IMG/VR virus record: IMGVR_UViG_3300025696_000025
Span: 1 to 31,731 of that record
Length of the DNA: 31,731 nt
DNA from: a virus
Taxonomy: Duplodnaviria; Caudoviricetes
Direction: 5' to 3' (one strand)
Shown here: positions 303 to 11,463 of the stretch, piece by piece
How positions within the stretch are numbered: the first letter of the stretch is position 1
Layout of the letters: every line of letters starts with the position of its first letter
The notes under the pieces: model-generated
Seen by the model: only the letters and a program-made list of their open reading frames with translations
Database searches by the model: none
What the model was told of the DNA's origin: nothing
Translations under genes and position numbers: made by a program

Positions 303-3300
303 TTAAAATTCATCAAATGTTATCCCTCCGGATCGTTTTTTCTTTTTTGTAGTTTTCTTTTTCTTACTCTTTTTATTTTTCTCTATACCTAATTCCCAGT
401 CTTGCCAACCAGCTGCCATAGCTATTCTTTCCCACACATCATAATCCTCGTTTAAAGCGCCTTGTATGTTTTGCGACTTACGTAAAGCTCTATCAACCGG
501 AATATTTGTTGTTGCTGAAATAACGTTAGCCATAGCCATGTATGCTGGATTATCTAAACTAAACTTCATGTCATCAAATGCTCCATATTCAGCTGCTTTT
601 GATGCGTTTACTAATTTCTTATACTTAGATCCCACGGTTGGAGATATGCTAACTATTTCTTTAACAGCTTTAGAGTATTTAGGATTCTTCTTGCTAGACT
701 CACTGTTTATAACCATAAGAGCATTCTTCACTTGAGCTGTTATTGCTCCTGGTATACCAGTACCTCTAAGTAATGAATCAGCCATACCATTAGCAACTCT
801 TCCTGATTTAGACAATAATTTTTCATCTTGCTCATCATCAGCGAAAGCTAAGCCAAATAAAGCATTTTGCACTACATTAAATATTAAGTTCTGCACAAAA
901 CCGTAGTAAACGATTTTAGACGTGTTTTCTCTCCAATCACCTCTTTTATTAGCAAGGTCTAACATAGCTTTTTTCTGCAACCTAGCATACTGCATTGGTG
1001 TATTAGCAAAAGCTAAAACAACTCTACCTAAGTTACTAGCCTGTTGTTGACTTATCTTGTCTGTTCCAGATGACTGTTGAGATTTTTCAGATATATCCTT
1101 AAAATCTAAAAAAGCTTTTTCTTTAGCCTCTACCTCAGATAGCCCTTGCTTTTTATAAGTGTTTATTCTATTTCTATAGAAAGTCGCACCACCTGAAGCT
1201 ATAGCAAAACTATCAGCGTATTTAGTAAATACAAAACCTTTTTTTAGTATTGTGTTTATTATACCTCTAGCACCTGAATCAGCAGCTATTTCAGCCTCAC
1301 TTACATTTAATTTTAATCCATCACGTCTAGCTGTTAAGTAGTCAGAGTTCATTATCTCTAAGAAATCTTTAGAATATTGCTTTACATCTACCAACCTAGC
1401 ACTAGCTTTTAAAGGATTGTTATCTGTCCAGTTTATAAAGTTTATACTAGATAACGTCTGTAAAACCGCAGATCTAGTGTTTAAAAACATTATGGCACCT
1501 ACAGAATTATTTATATAATCTAAAGCTCTATCACCCGCAGTGTTTTGTGAACTTCTATTTTTACCAGACTGCATCCTTTCTAAAGTACCTTCTAATGCTT
1601 TTCTATATTTCTTACCATAAGCTGCCTCTAGCTTATTCAAATTAGCTTCTGAAAATATTTCATCTTTATTTTGCTTCCACTGCTCTAAGTACTTAGCTCT
1701 TTTAACTTTACCAAGCAATGTTCTAGCATCGCTAGTTAACGTACCACTAAGCCAGTTTTTACCTGGTTCAGCCCAGCCATCACCTTTAGTTGTTGACAAA
1801 AGTTCATTAGCAAAAGCTTCATATGTTGGGTTATCTTTTATAACTTTATTTAGTTCAGCTAAATCAGATTTGCTTAAACCAGGAACTTCTACACCCATTT
1901 TTGTCCACATGCGAACTCTTAAAGCTTGCTCGTTAGTAAAACCTGTTTCATTTTTCTTTCTTAGTTTCTTAGGTATTATACCTAGTTTATTTTTTAAAGC
2001 TTTAACATCGTTAGCTAATGATATTTGATCTCTAATAATATTATCCTCAGCTCTAGCAAATGGATCAAATAAGTTTTCTTTGTAGAATTTAAGTGCCTGT
2101 TCACCTTTTTTACCTTTAGGTAGAGTCTTGTATAACAAACCAGCAAAATCTTCAGCAGTAGGTGATATAAATATATCAAATCTACCCTTACCTTTACCCA
2201 TTATTTCAGCCTTAGCTGATCCAAACGTTTTTTCTGAAGCTATGCCTGTTTTTTCCTGTATTATATCGTTAAATGTTTTTCCTAACTTTTTGCTAAATTT
2301 AGCTTGCTGAACTTTACTTTTAACATCTACTACACTTAATATTTCTTTAACAGCTCTAACATTTCCTAAATGATCATCAGCAAAGTAAAAATCATTGTAA
2401 CCGTCAGCCGCTTTATCTATCATCCATCTAGCTTTAGCTTGCGGAGTACCATCACCTAGACCTGTTATGTTTTCCAGTGGAATATTTAATCCCATGCTAT
2501 CTAAAAACTCTTTTATAGGTCCAGCAGCGTCAGCTGGTCTAGCAGTTAATACAAACATGTCTCTTTTACCTGGGCTTTCACTTATGAACTTAGCTACATC
2601 AAACAAAGGTCCTTTAGCACCTTTCATAACTTTACTAAACTCAGAAAAATCCCACTCAGCACCTTTAGCCTCAAGCTCACCTGCTCTTTTTGCAAACTCA
2701 GTAGCGGTTAAAGACCCTTTCTTTCCATCAGGCATTTCATACAACACATTACTTTTAGTTGTAGCTAATGTATCATCAAAATCAAATACTCTTATTTTTT
2801 TAACAGGAGATTTAAGGTTTCTAGCTATAGATAAAGCTTTATCTATTTTACTTAAGTTTTCTAAAGACTCTTCATTAGATACTTTTTTAGAAAATCTAAG
2901 AATTTTAGGTGTATTTTCATTATTTACTAAAGTTGCTTTTGTTATAACATCAGCCAACTTAACGTATTCGTTAATTAAACCTTTAGCTTCGCTTCTAGTT
3001 ACAGTGTTTAATCCTTCTAGTAAACCAGCCTCGCTTAATATAACAGATTCCATTATTTTATTCTGTTCTATTACAACATTTTTATTTTGCTCAAACTTCT
3101 TAGGTACAACTACATTATACTCCTTAGCCTTAGTTTCGTTACCTTTATATATATTGTTTGGATTTAAACCTACGTACTCATTTTTAGCATTTTTATACGT
3201 ATTAAAGTATCTTAAATCAGAGCTAGGAACTTTGTCCCAATCTTCTTTTTTACCAGACTCTACAGCTTTATTAAGTTGCTTCATCAACACTGGATGAGAT

Positions 3301-6300
3301 GTTCCACCTGAGTTAGACCACTTATTTCCCTCAGAGTCTACTAAATTTCCTTTTAAGGTGTCATTTTCATTCTTTAAAGTATACTGTATATAATTATCTT
3401 TTATCCACTTTTTATAATACTCTAATGATTGTTTAGCGTTAGGTTTTCCTTCTATAATATTCTTATACAACTGCACGCGTATATTAGCATGTTCAATAGC
3501 TTGAAAAACGTGCTCATCTGTTGTTTCTTTTTTTCTTTCTAAAGCTCCTACCTCTCTACCTATAGCTGTTGCTTGATTTCTATTAGCATTTGCATTTAAA
3601 CTAGGGTTATATATATACTCTCTTAAAACAGCAAAATCCTCAGGACCTGTTTTAGCAATAGCTAATTCTGCGTCTATTTGAAGATCTACACCTTTATCAT
3701 GTAGCTTTTTTAATTGTAAGTTCTTTTTCCAACTAGGACCATTTTTACCTCTAAAGGATTCTTTAAAAGCTTCTAGCTCTTTATCATTAAAACTTCTCTC
3801 ATTCTTCTTAGCATCCTCTTTAACTTTAGTTAAATTTATTAACTCGTCATTAAGTATAGCTTGCTCAGCCTCAGTCCTAAGCTTTTTATCAACTATTCTT
3901 CTAGGATCTGATATAATATCAAAACCTCTCTTACGCAGCGAGCTGATTTTATTGCCTGACGTCCAGTTTGTTGGTCTAGCAAATCGATCAACTGGTAGAA
4001 ACTTAGGAAAAGTATTTACTAATACCTTTTGCTTGGCGACTCTATCCGTTCTAATTTTATTTAACGCTTTTTTATCTACCTTAGAGTCTAGTTTTGCTTG
4101 ACCAGATTCTTTTCTTTTCTGAAATTTAGCACCAGCCTGTATTCTCTTACCTTGTTCAGGTATTAAAGTTTCTAACGCTCTATTTCTTATATGAAAATCT
4201 AACGCTGCTTTTATATGCTGAGCATCTCTATATATTGGTTTTTTCTTACCTTCACTGTCGAGTTGATTAAACTCGTACTGCTTACCATCATACCCTTCTA
4301 GTGTGACGTTTTTACCCTTTATTATATCTGTATATGTTTTTAAACCACCAGTTAATTCACCTGCCTTATTGTATAATACCTTACCTATCTTTGTTTGTAA
4401 TATTCCAGTAGCTTTACCAGTGTCATCCTTACTTCTAGGTAATCTAGCAAAATCCGATGCTGCATTATCTATTAAAAACTGTCTAGCTCTAACAGCTCCT
4501 TGTTGATCAAGTTTTTGTAAGTTTCTTTGTTTTTCTATAAGAGCAGAGACTGTTTTTATACCAAACATGTCTGCATAAAGCTGCGCTAATTCCTGAGGTA
4601 TTTTACCAGTCTCTTTAAATCTACTAACTGATCTATCTTTAAAAGATTCTTTTACAGTACTAGATATCTTATCCTCAATAGCTTGTTTTTCACTCTTGTC
4701 AGTGTCTAAGGATTTTTTAAACTCTGGAGATATATAGTTAGATTTGAATTTAGTTGTTTCTGTAGGTTTTTTAGCCAACTTATCTACAGCAACACTGGTC
4801 TTAGTAGATGTGTCTACAATTTGTTTAGCTTGCTCAGAATCTGTACTAGTTCCATCTAGTTTTTTCTCACCTATGTTTTTAGCTCTTTCTAATATTTCAG
4901 CTTGTCTTCTACCAAGAAAATTTGGACCTAGAACTGTAGTTACCTTACTTTTCTCTGCATCAAAATCTTTTAAAAATTCTTTATTCCGACCTGGAAATAT
5001 ACCTTGAAGTTGCTCCTTTACAGCTGTCTTGACAGACTCTATAGGTATAGAACCTGTTGGGTTAAACTTTATAGAGTTACTTATAACTGGCCAATTAGCC
5101 TCTACTATAGCATCTATAGCTCCAAACTTTTCTTCAGGTTTAGAAGAAGGTGAGTTTATGATATCAACTAATTGCTCGTTTTCTATAAGACCTTCTTTGA
5201 ATAAATCTATATATTGCTTACCTTTAGGTGATATGTCAGAGTCCCGTCTACTTATCGACTTTGAAGGCTTTTGACCCTCTACCTGAACACCTTCAGCAGC
5301 TATTGAGATATCTTTAGCAGCTTGTATACCTTTTTCTTCTCCTTTAGAGTAGCTCTTTATCAGCTCAAACAAGTTTTTACCAGTGTCAGCATTTAACTCC
5401 AGTTCTGGCATACCTTTTTTACGTAGAAATGGAACAAACTTTTCCATAGCGTTACCTACGTTTTCTTTAAACACTATACTTTTTTCTGTTATAGCATCTG
5501 ATAAAACAGTTAAATACTCTTCATAGTATTTACTAGCATCTAGCTCCTTACCTTTAGAATCATATCTGTAGTTATCGTCAATACGTTTTTGAACTAATTC
5601 TTTTTGCTTAGGAGTTAACTCATTTAAAACATCGTCAATTAGTTTTATACCTTCTTCAGTTACGTTACCAGTTTTATCTTTAAAAGAATCTCTTAAAACA
5701 AAGTGTCCAGCCTCGTGTTTATCTACAGTTATATTTCTAGTTTCTTTAACTACAGCTTCATTTACATAATATACCTTATTATTAGGATCGTAAAAGCCGT
5801 CAGTTTGTTTAACATCTTCTTTACCATCAAAAACTTCTTCATATTTTTTCTGAAAATCATCAACAGATCTAATTGATACGGACTCACCCTCTTTAGTAGC
5901 ACCTAACACATCCTCAGCTTGAGCTTTGTTTTCTTGTCTTTGTTTTAGGTAGTATTGATCTAGTTTGTCTTGTAGTTTATCGTACTTGTAACCTCCAGGA
6001 TTATAAGCTTCAAGGTCTTTTGTTAAAGACTCTAGCTCTTTTTCCTGTCCTTGATTTTTATTTTTTATGTTTTCAAGAGCCTTTACCTTACCTCCTATCT
6101 CGAAATACTCATCAATAAACTTATAAGATTCTGCTCTTTCTTTAGTACCATAGCCAGCTTTAAAGCTAATATTGTTATTTAAAATATCTTCAATAACAAA
6201 TTCTCTATTCCAGAGACCGTCAAGTGATTTAGAAGAAGGGTTCGCACCCATCCTAGCATAAATTATAGGTAGAGGAGTATTAACTAGAGCATTATTATCC

Positions 6301-8717
6301 TTATCGTTAAACTTCTCACCTTTTTTCATTTTCTGTATAAGTATTCTTACACTTTCATCTGTAGGTTTTAAAGCACTTTTATCCTCAGCCTCAAATCTTT
6401 CTTTAGCTAAATTAAGTTCAGCCTCGGCTTCTAATATGTTATAGTTTTTGTTAGCAGACTCTGCTTCTTTTTTAGCTTGTTCCTCTGTTATTTGTTGTGT
6501 CTTAAGCTTAGCATCTATACCTGCCATTTTTTCAGCTCTAGCGGCATCTATTTCGTTTATAGTTTCCTCACCTGGTTTCCTAACCGACTCAGCATCTATA
6601 CCAGTTATTTTAGCAGCTTTATTCACGTATGCTGGGTTTAAGTTTAATAAACGCATATCTCTCTGAGCAGCCGCAAGTATACCGTTTTTACTAAACGCTG
6701 ATTTAGTTCCTAGTAAAGCCATTTTAGCGGTTTCACCAAGATAATGAAGAATAAATTCTTCTGGACTTTGTTCGAAGTAAGTACTCTCACCTCTAGGCCC
6801 ATAACCAATACCTTCTGGATTCTGTATAGCCTCTAAAACTGTAGCAAATTCAAAAGAAAAAGCACCAGCACTAGCGTTAACAAATCTACCACCAACATCT
6901 TTAAGAACGTCAGATTTAGATAATTGTGCCATTACCGGGGAAAATATTGTTTTCGAAGGTATAGCTCTTAGTAAGCCAGAACCTAAAGAATTACCTCCAC
7001 CTAGTGAAAATCCAAATGTAGCTGTAGCCCATTCTTGCTCTCTAGTAGCTTGTTGAGATAAACCTAGTGTTGTTTTTGTTGTTTCTAAGCCTGTGAAAAC
7101 AGCGGCTTCATCTAGACCTTTTATAACAAAGTCACCAGCTTTTCTAAGCACTTTACTTGACTTAGCGGCTTTACTACTTTTAAAAGACTTATCCAGTAAC
7201 TTGAACCCTTTTTGTATCTTATTTCCTCCTGCGCCTTTAAACAACATCAACTCTCCAACAAACATAGTCAGGTCAACAGTACCACCACCCACTACACTCA
7301 ACCAATTTTGAGATAAAGCTTCATCTAGGTATTCGTCGTTTATACCACCTAACCCAGCTTTTTTAGCTTCTTTTACAAATGCTCTATTAATAGTGTACTG
7401 GGGTTTAGGCATAGCATCACCGCCAGTCATGTCTATTTTTTCTAAAATATTTTGACCCGCACTAAACCAAAAACCTTCCTGCTCTTTACTTAATGGATCC
7501 GTGTTTGTTTGAATTGCTTTATTTAAAACAACATAATTTTCCAAAGCAGTGTTATAAGCTTTAGCTAAAGGATGATTACCATTGATTTTACTTATATTTT
7601 CAGGTAATTCGTTTGTTGATGCTATTTGTTGCGCTCTTTCTAAATCTCCATACACAGTTTCTTCTGATCCAAAAAAATCTTTAACTACATTTGATATGAT
7701 AGCTGGACCTGTTTGAGACTCTTTAGTTATTTCTTCTTCACCATTTTCCTTTATAAAATCTGATATTCTATTAGATATACCCACTAAATTAGAGTATGAC
7801 TTAGTTAATTGATCTTGTATTTTGCTTAACTCTGTAGTTTTTGCTATTTCAGTTGCTTTTTCAGATCTCGAGTTCTCTTGTTTTTTATCTTCTTCAGATA
7901 AATCCTTATACTGTACTAAGTCTCCGGTGTTTATATTATAAAGTTCTCTTGACTCATCATTTCTTATCTCTTGTATCTTGTCTAGTATACTTTGTTTGTC
8001 TTTGTCACTTACTGTTTTTAAACTAGAGTAAAGTGTTTTTAGTTCTTTATCAGCACCCTTTAATATATTACCTCCTTGGTTTAATACAAAATCATTTGAC
8101 TTATCGCCATACTTTTTTATTATAACATTTAGAGCGCTGTTAGCTGCTTTATTTTGATCTTCAGCTTGAAGCTCAGCTATAGATACACCGTTTATTTTTT
8201 CATTTTGAGCGAAATCATCATAAGAAAAGCCACCTGTTATAGCACTACTATGATCGCCAAATATACCAGTATATTTCACCCCAGGCCCTCCAAGACCTAA
8301 AATACTAGGTGTATTTATAGTTTGGTATTCGACACCCTTTCCAGTAGTTTTAAGGTATAAATCTGAAATATTGTCAGGAGAGTAGTTCCATATACTAGAA
8401 CCAGCTTTACTTAAGGTTTTATTTATATTGTCTAACTTTAAATCTTCTTTAGTCTTTGGTGATTCCAAAGAAATATCTTCCGAAGGTGAATCCGTAACGC
8501 CCGCTTGTGATGCTGTCATTGGTTGAGACACCACATCCGCACCCGCTGCAGCGTCTTGTTGAAAATTTGGATCAAGTAAGTCACTGTGTTTTATTTTAGG
8601 TTCAGGGTCTTTATCTCCCTTGATCTTTTTTAAGTATTCTTTAACAGTCATATTAGATTGTTCAGCTGCTTTCTTTATTTGATCGTCAGTATATGAAACA
8701 TCCTTGTAAGTATACAT
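303..8717 (-). CDS. Giant (2804 aa) internal virion/ejection protein, polyvalent: zincin metallopeptidase, sigma70-r2-like segment, HAD phosphatase and helical C-terminal region
   Basis: It is the last and largest gene after GNAT and two smaller internal proteins (T7 gp16-like position). Motifs: GFYD...HEAGH (aa 1001-1005)...EE (1066-1067); HAD motifs DFDDT (1979), LTARP, K and FADD. Confidence 0.85.
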   Translation of the reverse strand: MYTYKDVSYTDDQIKKAAEQSNMTVKEYLKKIKGDKDPEPKIKHSDLLDPNFQQDAAAGADVVSQPMTASQAGVTDSPSEDISLESPKTKEDLKLDNINKTLSKAGSSIWNYSPDNISDLYLKTTGKGVEYQTINTPSILGLGGPGVKYTGIFGDHSSAITGGFSYDDFAQNEKINGVSIAELQAEDQNKAANSALNVIIKKYGDKSNDFVLNQGGNILKGADKELKTLYSSLKTVSDKDKQSILDKIQEIRNDESRELYNINTGDLVQYKDLSEEDKKQENSRSEKATEIAKTTELSKIQDQLTKSYSNLVGISNRISDFIKENGEEEITKESQTGPAIISNVVKDFFGSEETVYGDLERAQQIASTNELPENISKINGNHPLAKAYNTALENYVVLNKAIQTNTDPLSKEQEGFWFSAGQNILEKIDMTGGDAMPKPQYTINRAFVKEAKKAGLGGINDEYLDEALSQNWLSVVGGGTVDLTMFVGELMLFKGAGGNKIQKGFKLLDKSFKSSKAAKSSKVLRKAGDFVIKGLDEAAVFTGLETTKTTLGLSQQATREQEWATATFGFSLGGGNSLGSGLLRAIPSKTIFSPVMAQLSKSDVLKDVGGRFVNASAGAFSFEFATVLEAIQNPEGIGYGPRGESTYFEQSPEEFILHYLGETAKMALLGTKSAFSKNGILAAAQRDMRLLNLNPAYVNKAAKITGIDAESVRKPGEETINEIDAARAEKMAGIDAKLKTQQITEEQAKKEAESANKNYNILEAEAELNLAKERFEAEDKSALKPTDESVRILIQKMKKGEKFNDKDNNALVNTPLPIIYARMGANPSSKSLDGLWNREFVIEDILNNNISFKAGYGTKERAESYKFIDEYFEIGGKVKALENIKNKNQGQEKELESLTKDLEAYNPGGYKYDKLQDKLDQYYLKQRQENKAQAEDVLGATKEGESVSIRSVDDFQKKYEEVFDGKEDVKQTDGFYDPNNKVYYVNEAVVKETRNITVDKHEAGHFVLRDSFKDKTGNVTEEGIKLIDDVLNELTPKQKELVQKRIDDNYRYDSKGKELDASKYYEEYLTVLSDAITEKSIVFKENVGNAMEKFVPFLRKKGMPELELNADTGKNLFELIKSYSKGEEKGIQAAKDISIAAEGVQVEGQKPSKSISRRDSDISPKGKQYIDLFKEGLIENEQLVDIINSPSSKPEEKFGAIDAIVEANWPVISNSIKFNPTGSIPIESVKTAVKEQLQGIFPGRNKEFLKDFDAEKSKVTTVLGPNFLGRRQAEILERAKNIGEKKLDGTSTDSEQAKQIVDTSTKTSVAVDKLAKKPTETTKFKSNYISPEFKKSLDTDKSEKQAIEDKISSTVKESFKDRSVSRFKETGKIPQELAQLYADMFGIKTVSALIEKQRNLQKLDQQGAVRARQFLIDNAASDFARLPRSKDDTGKATGILQTKIGKVLYNKAGELTGGLKTYTDIIKGKNVTLEGYDGKQYEFNQLDSEGKKKPIYRDAQHIKAALDFHIRNRALETLIPEQGKRIQAGAKFQKRKESGQAKLDSKVDKKALNKIRTDRVAKQKVLVNTFPKFLPVDRFARPTNWTSGNKISSLRKRGFDIISDPRRIVDKKLRTEAEQAILNDELINLTKVKEDAKKNERSFNDKELEAFKESFRGKNGPSWKKNLQLKKLHDKGVDLQIDAELAIAKTGPEDFAVLREYIYNPSLNANANRNQATAIGREVGALERKKETTDEHVFQAIEHANIRVQLYKNIIEGKPNAKQSLEYYKKWIKDNYIQYTLKNENDTLKGNLVDSEGNKWSNSGGTSHPVLMKQLNKAVESGKKEDWDKVPSSDLRYFNTYKNAKNEYVGLNPNNIYKGNETKAKEYNVVVPKKFEQNKNVVIEQNKIMESVILSEAGLLEGLNTVTRSEAKGLINEYVKLADVITKATLVNNENTPKILRFSKKVSNEESLENLSKIDKALSIARNLKSPVKKIRVFDFDDTLATTKSNVLYEMPDGKKGSLTATEFAKRAGELEAKGAEWDFSEFSKVMKGAKGPLFDVAKFISESPGKRDMFVLTARPADAAGPIKEFLDSMGLNIPLENITGLGDGTPQAKARWMIDKAADGYNDFYFADDHLGNVRAVKEILSVVDVKSKVQQAKFSKKLGKTFNDIIQEKTGIASEKTFGSAKAEIMGKGKGRFDIFISPTAEDFAGLLYKTLPKGKKGEQALKFYKENLFDPFARAEDNIIRDQISLANDVKALKNKLGIIPKKLRKKNETGFTNEQALRVRMWTKMGVEVPGLSKSDLAELNKVIKDNPTYEAFANELLSTTKGDGWAEPGKNWLSGTLTSDARTLLGKVKRAKYLEQWKQNKDEIFSEANLNKLEAAYGKKYRKALEGTLERMQSGKNRSSQNTAGDRALDYINNSVGAIMFLNTRSAVLQTLSSINFINWTDNNPLKASARLVDVKQYSKDFLEIMNSDYLTARRDGLKLNVSEAEIAADSGARGIINTILKKGFVFTKYADSFAIASGGATFYRNRINTYKKQGLSEVEAKEKAFLDFKDISEKSQQSSGTDKISQQQASNLGRVVLAFANTPMQYARLQKKAMLDLANKRGDWRENTSKIVYYGFVQNLIFNVVQNALFGLAFADDEQDEKLLSKSGRVANGMADSLLRGTGIPGAITAQVKNALMVINSESSKKNPKYSKAVKEIVSISPTVGSKYKKLVNASKAAEYGAFDDMKFSLDNPAYMAMANVISATTNIPVDRALRKSQNIQGALNEDYDVWERIAMAAGWQDWELGIEKNKKSKKKKTTKKKKRSGGITFDEF
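8449..8568 (-). other. Putative -1 programmed ribosomal frameshift signal (slippery heptamer plus pseudoknot) and 37-codon -1 frame extension
   Basis: In-frame A_AAT_TTT at 8568-8562, a 5-nt spacer, a 10-bp stem (8556-8547 with 8535-8526), and loop GGUGC pairing with GCAUC (8513-8509). The -1 frame stop is at 8451-8449. Confidence 0.6.
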
Positions 8718-8737: not shown

Positions 8738-10318
8738 TTAAAAAATTGGTAAATCACCAGTATCACTAAAGTCAAATATTTTATCAACTACACTATCTAT
8801 ATTTTCAGAAACCTCTAAACTCTTGTTGCCTCTAAAATTAAACAGTGTTCTAGCTAAATTTTTAACTTGAGATTTATCTGACAAATCAAACTTCTTCATT
8901 TTTTTATTTCCAGTGCTTTTATCTGTCATAGTAAATTCAAGTATCTTAGTTTCTTCGTCGTAGTTTCTATCAGTAACTCTACTAGCATCTGGGCCACCAA
9001 TATTTGTCAAGTAAGATATAGGATCTTCTAAAAGATCATTAACAGCTCTATTAGCAGCGTTCATCTTGAAGTCTGTTTCTTCTTCTCCTCCTTCTTCTTG
9101 CTCTTCAACTTCTACAGCTGTAGGTTTTCCAATATTTTTAGTGTATATTGGATCGTTAACCTTCAAGTTAGGTATACCTAAGTTTTTCACATCATCTGGT
9201 GTTGCCAACCTCTTAGTGCCTAGTGATTCTAGATTTTTATGTACCATTTGACCAATTATAAAAGCCTCTCTAAGGGCTTCTGGAACTGATTCATACATAA
9301 CTGCGGTTTCTTTATCCCATTTCAATCTACCTGTAATAAACTGTTTTTGCTGCTTCATCGAGTAAGACATTATTCCTTTAGCTTGAGATTTAATTAAATC
9401 CATGTAAGCTACATTGTCTTCGATAGCAGCGTTGTTTACAACCTGCTCTTTATACTGAAAACCACCTACAGTTCTAGTAGTTATATTTGGATAAACAAAT
9501 TCCTTTGTTAGTTGATTTTTATCATCAAATATATCAGCCTCTTGAAGTGTTTTATTTCTATCACTTTCAGCCATTACAGGTTCGAAAAATGATCCGTCCC
9601 ATTTTGATAAATCTCTTTCAAATTTTATATTGACATATCCATCAGACTCTTTATAATCACCTAATAAATCAGCTTCTTTAAATTTATTATACACATCACT
9701 TCCAACTTTTATCCGTGAGTTTATTTTAAGTATATTTGAATTATTATCGTTAGGAGCAATATTTATAGTACTTTCAACACCTGGCGTTTTTTTACCATTA
9801 ATAGCCATAACACCTATCAAATTAGATATTTCATCCCCACTAGCAGGTGCGTGACCATCTACTACTTGATCTATAGTTAAATCGTTAAACTCTTGCGCTC
9901 CAGTAGAAATATTGTTTATCTGGTCTTTACTATTTACCATGTAAGATTGAAAATTGCTTATAGCTTTTCTATACTCTTGCCTTTGTTTTTTATTTAAATT
10001 AGTATTCATACCTAGTTCAGCTGACGCATTCATAGCTGCTCCACCTTTTTCTTGAAATATTTTAGTAAGTTCATCTCTAACTCTAGTGTCTTTTACACCT
10101 GAAACAATTTTTAATATATCTTTATCTTGCTGTAACTCTGTGTTTACTAAAAACCTATTCTTAGCCTCGTCTATTTTTTTTTGTTTTTCTGCAGCTATTC
10201 TCTTAGCTTCACTGTATTTATCTATACCGGAGCTAACAATGTCACCTATCTTACTAACACCTTGAGCCCATATCTCAGCTGATCTATCTACTATTATTTG
10301 TGGATTTCTATAACTCAT
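8738..10318 (-). CDS. Internal virion/ejection protein (526 aa, T7 gp15-like position)
   Basis: Charged and helical with an N-terminal coiled coil. It lies between the Ala/Gly-rich small ejection protein and the giant protein. Assignment is by synteny. Confidence 0.6.
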   Translation of the reverse strand: MSYRNPQIIVDRSAEIWAQGVSKIGDIVSSGIDKYSEAKRIAAEKQKKIDEAKNRFLVNTELQQDKDILKIVSGVKDTRVRDELTKIFQEKGGAAMNASAELGMNTNLNKKQRQEYRKAISNFQSYMVNSKDQINNISTGAQEFNDLTIDQVVDGHAPASGDEISNLIGVMAINGKKTPGVESTINIAPNDNNSNILKINSRIKVGSDVYNKFKEADLLGDYKESDGYVNIKFERDLSKWDGSFFEPVMAESDRNKTLQEADIFDDKNQLTKEFVYPNITTRTVGGFQYKEQVVNNAAIEDNVAYMDLIKSQAKGIMSYSMKQQKQFITGRLKWDKETAVMYESVPEALREAFIIGQMVHKNLESLGTKRLATPDDVKNLGIPNLKVNDPIYTKNIGKPTAVEVEEQEEGGEEETDFKMNAANRAVNDLLEDPISYLTNIGGPDASRVTDRNYDEETKILEFTMTDKSTGNKKMKKFDLSDKSQVKNLARTLFNFRGNKSLEVSENIDSVVDKIFDFSDTGDLPIF

Positions 10319-10332
10319 ATTATATTTTTTTT

Positions 10333-11055
10333 TTAACCAGCGGCAATTAAAGAAGAGGCTATGTTACCAACACCACTTAAAGCACCGCTCCACGCTTGCG
10401 CTTTAGCTTGATTAGCTGAAGCTTCAGCGGCTTGTGCCTGTGATATTTTACCAGCCGCTCTATCAAGGTCTGCATCTGTTCTATTTTCTCGAGCTTGAAA
10501 CATAAACTGTTTACCTGCCGCTTCTGTTGCTTGTACTCTCTGACCTTCTGATATAGCTATGCTTTGCATACGTTGTTGCTCAGCCATTTTAGCATTCATT
10601 AGGTTTTGCTCTCCTTGAGCTTTTAGTTTTTGGTTTTGAGCTTCTTGCTGTTCTATATTAGCAGCAACACCTTGTTTACTTTGTAACGCAGCTTGAGCTA
10701 AAGCTGTAGCGCCACCAGCAGAAGCACCTGTAGCTCTTATTGTGTCTAGTGTATTCGCTAAAGATATATCGGCTTGTTCTATCTGTATCTCAGCTGCTTT
10801 AGTTGCAACACCTAAATTTTCAAACGGGTTAGATAATTGACTACTAAGATCAGTAGCTAAACTACTAAGATCTTCTGTTGAAGCGTATGGATTTGTTATT
10901 TGCTGTCTAGAATTTTTTATTGATCTAAGCTCAGCTTCAGCTCTTTGCTTTTCTGATCTAGCTCTTCTAGCTGCTTTACCTGCCGCTCCACCAGCTATAG
11001 CTCCACCTGCTAAACTTGCTGCCGCTCCAACGGCTAATGCTGTTACTACACCCAT
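10333..11055 (-). CDS. Small ejection/pilot protein (240 aa, T7 gp14-like position)
   Basis: Hydrophobic Gly/Ala-rich termini (MGVVTALAVGAAASLAGGAIAGG; WSGALSGVGNIASSLIAAG) flank an Ala/Gln-rich coiled coil, as is typical of podovirus ejection proteins. Confidence 0.75.
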   Translation of the reverse strand: MGVVTALAVGAAASLAGGAIAGGAAGKAARRARSEKQRAEAELRSIKNSRQQITNPYASTEDLSSLATDLSSQLSNPFENLGVATKAAEIQIEQADISLANTLDTIRATGASAGGATALAQAALQSKQGVAANIEQQEAQNQKLKAQGEQNLMNAKMAEQQRMQSIAISEGQRVQATEAAGKQFMFQARENRTDADLDRAAGKISQAQAAEASANQAKAQAWSGALSGVGNIASSLIAAG

Positions 11056-11058
11056 AAT

Positions 11059-11463
11059 TTATATTTTTTTTACTAATTCTTTAGAAGATTTATTGTCTAT
11101 ACTCCAACCAAGCTCTTCATGAGTTTTAATTAATGATTCATTTCTACCTATAGAGAACATATATTTTACGCCATTACTTCTACAAACTTCTTCAGCTGCA
11201 TTTATTAAAAGTGCTATAGCTTGTTTTCTGTCAGCTTCTTTGTAATCTGGATTAGATACAACCCATTCTAATAAAGCTCCCTTAGAGTTAGTGTAATATA
11301 TGAAACCTGCCACGATAGGCACGTCTTTTTCAACCATCAAACCTCCTTTACCATTATCAGGTAAAAAATCTCTAGGTGGATTTTGCCATTCAGGCCACTC
11401 ATCCCACCAAGAACATAAGGTTTCCCAGTCGCTCTCTTTTAATTTTCTAATATTTAATTGCAT
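11059..11463 (-). CDS. GNAT-fold acetyltransferase-like protein (T7 gp13-like position)
   Basis: 134 aa with the GNAT pattern: N-terminal IRKLKESDW, central beta strands (IVAGFIY, ALLEWVVSNPDY), helix AIALLINAAEE and C-terminal LIKTHEELGW. Confidence 0.75.
   Translation of the reverse strand: MQLNIRKLKESDWETLCSWWDEWPEWQNPPRDFLPDNGKGGLMVEKDVPIVAGFIYYTNSKGALLEWVVSNPDYKEADRKQAIALLINAAEEVCRSNGVKYMFSIGRNESLIKTHEELGWSIDNKSSKELVKKI

Follow-up and report, generated by a model that had tools for sequence, protein, structure and literature searches.

Does the 5' end of a giant phage gene specify one protein or two? The question is raised by the window, as we call the whole 31,731-nucleotide (nt) stretch of DNA analyzed here (positions 1 to 31,731 of the IMG/VR virus record IMGVR_UViG_3300025696_000025; Duplodnaviria, Caudoviricetes), in which a gene of 2804 amino acids (aa) occupies positions 303..8717 of the minus strand. 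A first-pass annotation, made from the letters alone, had predicted a -1 frameshift near the start of this giant gene, and recomputing the coordinates placed the slippery heptamer, the spacer, the first stem, the loop pairing and the -1 stop exactly where it had put them. Together these parts form a cassette that is conserved and very likely functional. Programmed -1 ribosomal frameshifting at its U_UUU core, stimulated by a pseudoknot, is highly probable judging from the sequence and would yield an 89-residue product with the same N-terminus as the giant protein.

The cassette in the window and among relatives

The cassette lies on the minus strand between an N-terminal module of about 35 aa (8613..8717), common to both products, and the body of the giant gene. 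Its slip site, A_AAU_UUU (AAATTTT; P50-N51-F52), is in frame at 8568-8562 and is followed by a 5-nt spacer, CAACA (8561-8557), the length of which is 5-7 nt in 39 of the 41 relatives in which a pseudoknot was detected. The 5' arm of stem 1 (8556-8547) pairs with the 3' arm (8535-8526) over 10 base pairs, including three G-U; in the loop, GGTGC (8543-8539) forms the 5' arm of stem 2 and pairs with GCATC (8513-8509), located 12 nt after stem 1. In the -1 frame, 37 codons separate the slip site from a stop at 8451-8449, and they include the motif YGFTFGRYFFG (8464..8496), at which the zero frame encodes an acidic Ser/Thr linker. The stop lies four codons past the motif (3-16 codons among the 51 anchored relatives, with a median of 4), and the recount agrees with the 89-aa product proposed initially, as compared with 2804 aa in the zero frame. 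Upstream of the slip site the -1 frame is closed by a stop, with no ATG in between.

The G+C content at 8481-8560 (45/80) was also recomputed as given. The giant gene is AT-rich, with 33.7% G+C overall, and nine of its 8335 80-nt segments reach at least 45/80, all of them starting at 8474-8482. With a purpose-made H-type scorer based on stem energies only, the site ranks first among 745 in-frame Z_ZZN sites of the 14 window genes; an equally good score is found at 4 of 9721 codon positions of these genes and in none of 20 dinucleotide shuffles. No Rfam family fits the cassette, the four weak matches all being far under the gathering score.

Relatives were gathered through the neighboring GNAT-like gene (43, 80 and 4 loci, plus one annotated record). 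Loci ending too early were dropped, and 93 readable starts of the third, giant gene were reduced to 67 distinct ones. Of these 67 starts, 58 have a slip site in frame together with a -1 peptide, 42 being of the pseudoknot type and 16 carrying a run of 10-11 A's. After the slip site the -1 frame stays open for 25-65 codons, whereas the null median is 4, a comparison that is partly circular because the 58 sites were picked by eye; among 2241 control positions, 2.5% have a -1 frame of at least 25 codons. A reverse search by the DNA pattern of the motif alone returned 119 loci in one quarter of IMG/VR, which extrapolates to about 480 stretches for one strict pattern in the collection. In 118 of these loci the motif is offset by one base from a frame that has no stop before the flank ends, and the ATG of this open main frame is found 42-119 codons upstream in 116; a permissive script located a slip motif nearby in 113 of 117 distinct loci, 39 of these being A9-10 runs.

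The first-pass annotation anticipated a slippery heptamer conserved in homologues. An in-frame slip site is indeed widespread, but the conserved core is the four-base U_UUU or A_AAG rather than the full heptamer. Among the 42 pseudoknot-type genes, the site is G_GGA_AAG, the lambda site, in 19 cases, A_AAU_UUU in 6, G_GAU_UUU in 5 and A_GUA_AAG in 5, the rest being rarer. An A_AAG, A_AAA or U_UUU core is present in all 42, a perfect XXX heptamer in 26, and the remaining 16 have only U_UUU or A_AAG. A natural variant at 8566, seen in four runs, disrupts the A_AA part and retains U_UUU. For E. coli and an IS3 pseudoknot, the accessible text of one study ranks A_AAG and then U_UUY as the best tetramers, and describes R_RRU_UUY heptamers as shift-prone (PMC4066793). 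Since the cores kept here are the best cores of E. coli, -1 ribosomal frameshifting at U_UUU is favored.

A pseudoknot was detected in 41 of the 42 genes, 39 of which beat at least 19 of 20 shuffles. In a plain MAFFT alignment of the 42 sequences, 88.8% of cells pair, compared with 26-43% for slid-partner controls, bearing in mind that the tested structure was derived from one alignment row, which favors it over slid versions; none of 500 shuffles paired as well. The covarying stems expected in homologues were found: 11 of the 16 base pairs change on both sides in a compensatory manner, and on a tree of the GNAT-like neighbor the true pairs undergo 52 joint changes, whereas 60 mismatched pairings average 21 and never exceed 31. 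A natural variant at 8542, seen among the four runs, converts a G-U pair of stem 2 into A-U. Contigs from RNA libraries span the cassette with no indels seen, and neither transcription nor strand can be read from them.

In 51 of the 58 starts, the -1 peptide is anchored by a C-terminal YG(I)x(I/F/L)G(R/K)(Y/W)F(F/I)G, whose distance to the stop has a median of 4 residues, the other seven having looser forms; the predicted short products of the anchored relatives measure 71-128 aa. The conserved FGRxFFG-like peptide that had been foreseen is present, most relatives ending in YG(I)x(I)G(R/K)(Y/W)FFG. Over 44 distinct blocks anchored on the motif (six were left out for different spacing and one as a duplicate), the ratio of nonsynonymous to synonymous variation (pN/pS) of the motif takes values of 0.36 (-1 frame), 1.37 (main frame) and 2.08 (+1 frame). 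The three motif Gly codons use all four third bases and, without motif anchoring, variability remains highest at the third position of the -1 frame (entropy of 1.12 vs. 0.58 and 0.72). These patterns indicate that the motif evolves as a protein in the -1 frame.

Two features of the -1 product had been singled out, of which the aromatic/Gly C-terminus is conserved, whereas the Cys cluster is dispensable. Pseudoknot types have a median of 4 Cys and A-run types 0-3; several A-run phages start the motif 2-5 nt after the run, and the Cys cluster is therefore not the conserved part but an optional addition or a side effect of the G+C-rich stems. The net charge of the -1 peptides ranges from +2 to +10, with a median of +5.5. 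A sequence search of the PDB with the motif profile returned no match, and the Atlas queried with P0025 gave a top score of 0.80, a lead at best. When the profile of the -1 peptide was compared with 1.84 billion proteins, 29 of the 30 matches were proteins of 58-112 aa with module and motif in one frame. Hard-wired one-frame genes were considered and rejected: the 10 proteins looked up belong to clusters of one or two members, each on one contig, and a normal two-frame cassette is found in the nearest relatives of P0005 (85-94%). Being near-singletons, one of them with normal two-frame relatives, the one-frame proteins give no support; they are more simply explained by indels or chimeras, a reading based on their relatives and not on their own contigs.

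A-run relatives and exchangeable modules

The A-run types keep the -1 peptide without conserved structure: one of the 16 beats its shuffles, and no consensus fold of a stimulator emerged among 26 A-run sequences from the pattern scan. Ribosome sliding on A runs is one route to the -1 frame. Runs of nine A's or T's support polymerase slippage, according to the accessible text of a review (PMC5009743). Adding a single A shifts reading into the -1 frame, and A-run relatives would therefore make the same product by either slippage or sliding; it is likely that RNA-polymerase slippage or ribosome sliding operates on these structure-free runs of 9-11 A's.

Cultured phages extend this picture. Comparing the -1 peptide with cultured phages by tblastn gave no match, and the isolate forms were found by reading gene starts. 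In phi38:1, Calle_1 and the elemo phages, an in-frame A10 run precedes a degenerate basic-aromatic -1 peptide (L259:14423-14700; L138:3283-3600), the "module" of phi38:1 being a short motif present twice. An A9 run sets the module out of frame in phi18:3, phi46:3, phi13:2, phi19:3 and Panino, and the module is annotated apart from the giant gene, or left off it, in four Pachyviridae records and Panino (L134:7310-7640, L135:6119-6450, L136:6119-6400, L137:5620-5940 on the minus strand, and L049:31586-31800). These A9 runs are probably one-base homopolymer undercalls that split one gene. The Cellulophaga phages were presumably sequenced by 454. The undercall reading is favored because Panino was sequenced by MinION only, according to the accessible text of its description (PMC11590407), and because phi38:1 and Calle_1 have A10 in the same context; alternatively, the A9 phages may rely on true obligatory slippage to make the giant protein. 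On the GNAT-like neighbor tree (72 rows), the cultured, most distant phages are of the A-run type, one A-run clade of 11 lies inside the pseudoknot types on starred branches, and the U_UUU sites need at least four changes. As this tree is built on one short gene and has no root, and as cassettes may recombine, it gives no order of events.

AlphaFold models the N-terminal module of the window as a beta-hairpin and two helices, with a predicted local distance difference test score (pLDDT) of 76.7. It belongs to a family of 34 among 162 modules and is seen only at giant-gene starts, no convincing match having been found elsewhere in the proteome. The 162 modules form many unrelated small families, the largest counting 34, 29, 21 and 10 members; tandem-duplicated helical modules go mostly with A-run types and single modules mostly with pseudoknot types, as judged by eye. 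The modules are interchangeable among relatives, while the tail is fixed. A weak resemblance to ribbon-helix-helix proteins was noted (Arc, E-value of 0.077 by sequence; best Foldseek E-value of 1.2, with a root-mean-square deviation of about 6). That fold is an obligate dimer of a single strand and two helices; the module model has a beta-hairpin. Relatives share the cassette (8443-8604 in the window) and yet diverge on both sides, which is why it may also serve as a swap point.

The virus and its giant protein

The window holds one minus-strand operon with terminase, portal, capsid-like, tail-like and GNAT-like genes, then genes for proteins of 240, 526 and 2804 aa. Its capsid-like and portal proteins are 28-50% identical to those of Elemovirus, Maribacter phage Panino, Callevirus (phi38:1) and Pachyviridae, and the window reads as the virion module of a podovirus of Flavobacteriia that has Elemovirus, Pachyviridae and Callevirus among its relatives; its DNA is present in marine metagenomes. 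Upstream of the giant gene (8738..11463, minus strand) are found the 526-aa and 240-aa putative ejection genes and the GNAT-like gene that provided the synteny anchor (134 aa, 11059-11463, minus strand; PF00583, E-value of 0.008, under the cut-off), which sits directly before the putative ejection genes in most relatives. The 240-aa protein (10333-11055, minus strand) weakly matches an NCBIfam model of a pore-forming toxin subunit (18 bits vs. a cut-off of 125), which most likely reflects its hydrophobic helical N-terminus.

The label of giant ejection protein used in the first-pass annotation agrees with gene order and with weak leads, but no family match stands behind it. A small-medium-giant trio after the tail genes, as in podovirus ejection (internal virion) proteins, is present, the giant gene being its third member and occupying the position of the largest structural gene in related phages. 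The C-terminal part of the protein has LPD38 clusters as an Atlas lead (0.94), and a HAD-like stretch matches phrog_415 (E-value of 2e-4). No Pfam or NCBIfam family was found for the giant protein, nor any blastp match at an E-value of 1e-5 to the giants of phi18:3, phi38:1 and elemoA. Because of gene order and the LPD38 lead, we regard it as a putative ejection (internal virion) protein. In phi18:3, the annotation of gp123, which occupies the same gene position, records its detection by tandem mass spectrometry; the equivalence is by position only. The giant protein also bears an HExxH-like motif (HEAGH) near residue ~1000 and a HAD/polynucleotide-kinase-like domain at residues 1971-2151; its C-terminal 850 residues keep 51-55% identity even in cassette-less phages, and the N-terminal half is highly variable. 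Some giant genes of relatives are interrupted further downstream (L008:10333-10373, L154, L268:11478-11609), these interruptions being candidates for assembly errors or further recoding sites.

Possible roles and known recoding systems

As a whole explanation, the cassette with its covarying pseudoknot, read in the -1 frame to give an 89-residue protein besides the 2804-residue one, has in our estimation a probability of about 0.8. A minority of ribosomes would pause at the pseudoknot while UUU occupies the A site and slip back one base, tRNA-Phe re-pairing one base back, and 37 new residues would be added before the stop. The short protein would have the same N-terminal address module as the giant protein and would reach the same partner, whatever the module type. 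Its basic-aromatic tail, replacing the giant body, would anchor it to the membrane or to a conserved virion part during loading or ejection. Frameshifting guarantees the same module on both products, as would suit an accessory isoform accompanying the giant protein to its partner; the identification of the short protein as a tail-anchored, accessory isoform of an injected protein is itself tentative.

Several observations weigh against this explanation. The pseudoknot ranked first by the H-type scorer is ordinary when nested folding without pseudoknots is applied to the site (z of -0.11), the nested fold preferring a competing helix that gives the 5' arm of stem 1 another partner. Covariation is thinner in stem 2 than in stem 1, with 7 of the 52 joint changes. 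The choice of the 58 slip sites by eye and the anchoring of the pN/pS blocks on the motif also count here. Tetramer-only sites shift just 0.26-5.6% in E. coli, as given in the accessible text of PMC4066793, and the rules of Flavobacteriia may differ. The frameshift itself is deduced from sequence, and the AlphaFold model of the tail has a pLDDT of 55.5 and a low-confidence predicted helix. Moreover, 9 of the 67 giant-gene starts lack the cassette, as do 9 of the 21 starts printed from a scan centered on a cassette-less phage. Two complete genomes show no match to the motif, using a profile that likewise failed on one bearer with a divergent A-run form, and no convincing compensating gene was found in nine near-complete genomes, two cassette-less and seven bearers. 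Because complete genomes and relatives without the motif exist, the cassette appears helpful rather than essential to this phage group.

The shift could instead be mainly regulatory, keeping the giant protein at few copies per virion, with the tail acting as a degradation tag or ribosome-arrest peptide. C-terminal signals and stall peptides keep a near-fixed distance to the stop, as the motif does (median of 4 codons), and a clean loss of the cassette with the module kept (L349 compared with L351 and L363) would suit this role. However, an immediate stop would be a simpler way to cut the dose, purifying selection on 11 residues exceeds the need of dose control, and tails of up to 16 residues occur, which leaves a purely regulatory function doubtful. 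A lysis accessory, in the form of a cationic, aromatic late peptide weakening the host envelope, matches the net charge of the -1 peptides; such a peptide would not need the acidic N-terminal module, and no consistent difference in holin-like or small membrane genes was apparent between two complete cassette-less genomes and seven bearers (a small sample, with simple open reading frame calling), making this role improbable.

Even less probable is a decoy, in which a membrane-held copy of the module would block ejection by a related phage or absorb a host factor attacking the giant protein. The free swapping of module types among relatives, as in conflict systems, and the patchy presence of the cassette are compatible with it, whereas cassette-less phages retain the module and the place of the gene in the virion operon suggests late expression. 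That no frameshift occurs at all, the cassette being a conserved DNA or RNA element (either a pause structure or the border at which swapped modules recombine) and the -1 peptide its shadow, would account for a conserved island between unrelated flanks, at which the contigs of relatives pile up before diverging on both sides. It is very improbable, for the changes in the motif are synonymous only when read in the -1 frame, the structure is always downstream of an in-frame slip site, and A-run types retain the peptide with no structure. Frameshifting, tentatively to an accessory isoform, is the explanation that we retain.

No description of the cassette was found in the literature searched, including the accessible text of PMC10028833 and PMC10386132, and a mention in a supplement or paywalled paper is possible. 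We speculate that it is a portable "tail-swap" cassette, grafting a YGIxIGRWFFG anchor onto any N-terminal module in abundant Flavobacteriia podoviruses, and switching between A10 polymerase slippage and pseudoknot frameshifting, its product being an unrecognised component of DNA ejection. If true, a large aquatic phage group makes a protein missed by gene callers, and phage recoding would extend to the start of internal-protein genes. Relatives would also provide bacterial pseudoknots that nature has combined with different slip sites, a series useful for testing frameshift rules in Bacteroidota, and a further case of two recoding devices for one product. Cultured A-run relatives (phi38:1, Calle_1, phi18:3 and Panino) make the cassette testable now.

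In copA, the -1 frame stops almost at once. Here, unlike the immediate stop without a tail that marks the copA/dnaX type, the slip site is followed by 25-65 -1 codons with a selected 11-residue motif. What is shared with this type is the release of a short N-terminal product, predicted here at 71-128 aa. In E. coli copA, a -1 shift near the 5' end frees the N-terminal domain as a 70-aa copper chaperone, as predicted for the cassette, and the tau/gamma pair of dnaX arises by a ribosomal shift in E. coli and, in Thermus thermophilus, by polymerase slippage on a run of 9 bases (both in the accessible text of PMC5009743). Like dnaX, the giant gene appears to be one gene family with the same product pair and two devices, the pseudoknot and the A run. 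Unlike the cassette, dnaX is a cellular replication gene in which the shift is late, the stops are nearby and no new tail is conserved.

Among phages, lambda gpG/gpGT and the T7/T3 coat extensions are, like the cassette, cases of morphogenesis genes giving two proteins with a common N-terminus; according to the same accessible text, the shift there lies near the gene end and lengthens the product of chaperone, capsid or tail genes (PMC5009743). The window differs from lambda G/GT in its podovirus gene order, in a site inside a giant gene and in a shifted product that is shorter (89 vs. 2804 aa). As for the signal, those of the IS3 family of insertion sequences share the slip cores, the spacing of about 5 nt and the 3' pseudoknot, and are read by bacterial ribosomes (PMC4066793 and PMC5009743, in their accessible text), and the window has a slip motif, a structure 5-9 nt downstream and an open -1 frame under coding selection. 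In insertion sequences the shift fuses two open reading frames into a longer transposase, whereas here a giant virion protein would be cut short and given a conserved tail. By analogy, the signal is of the IS3 type, and the product logic is nearest to that of copA and dnaX.

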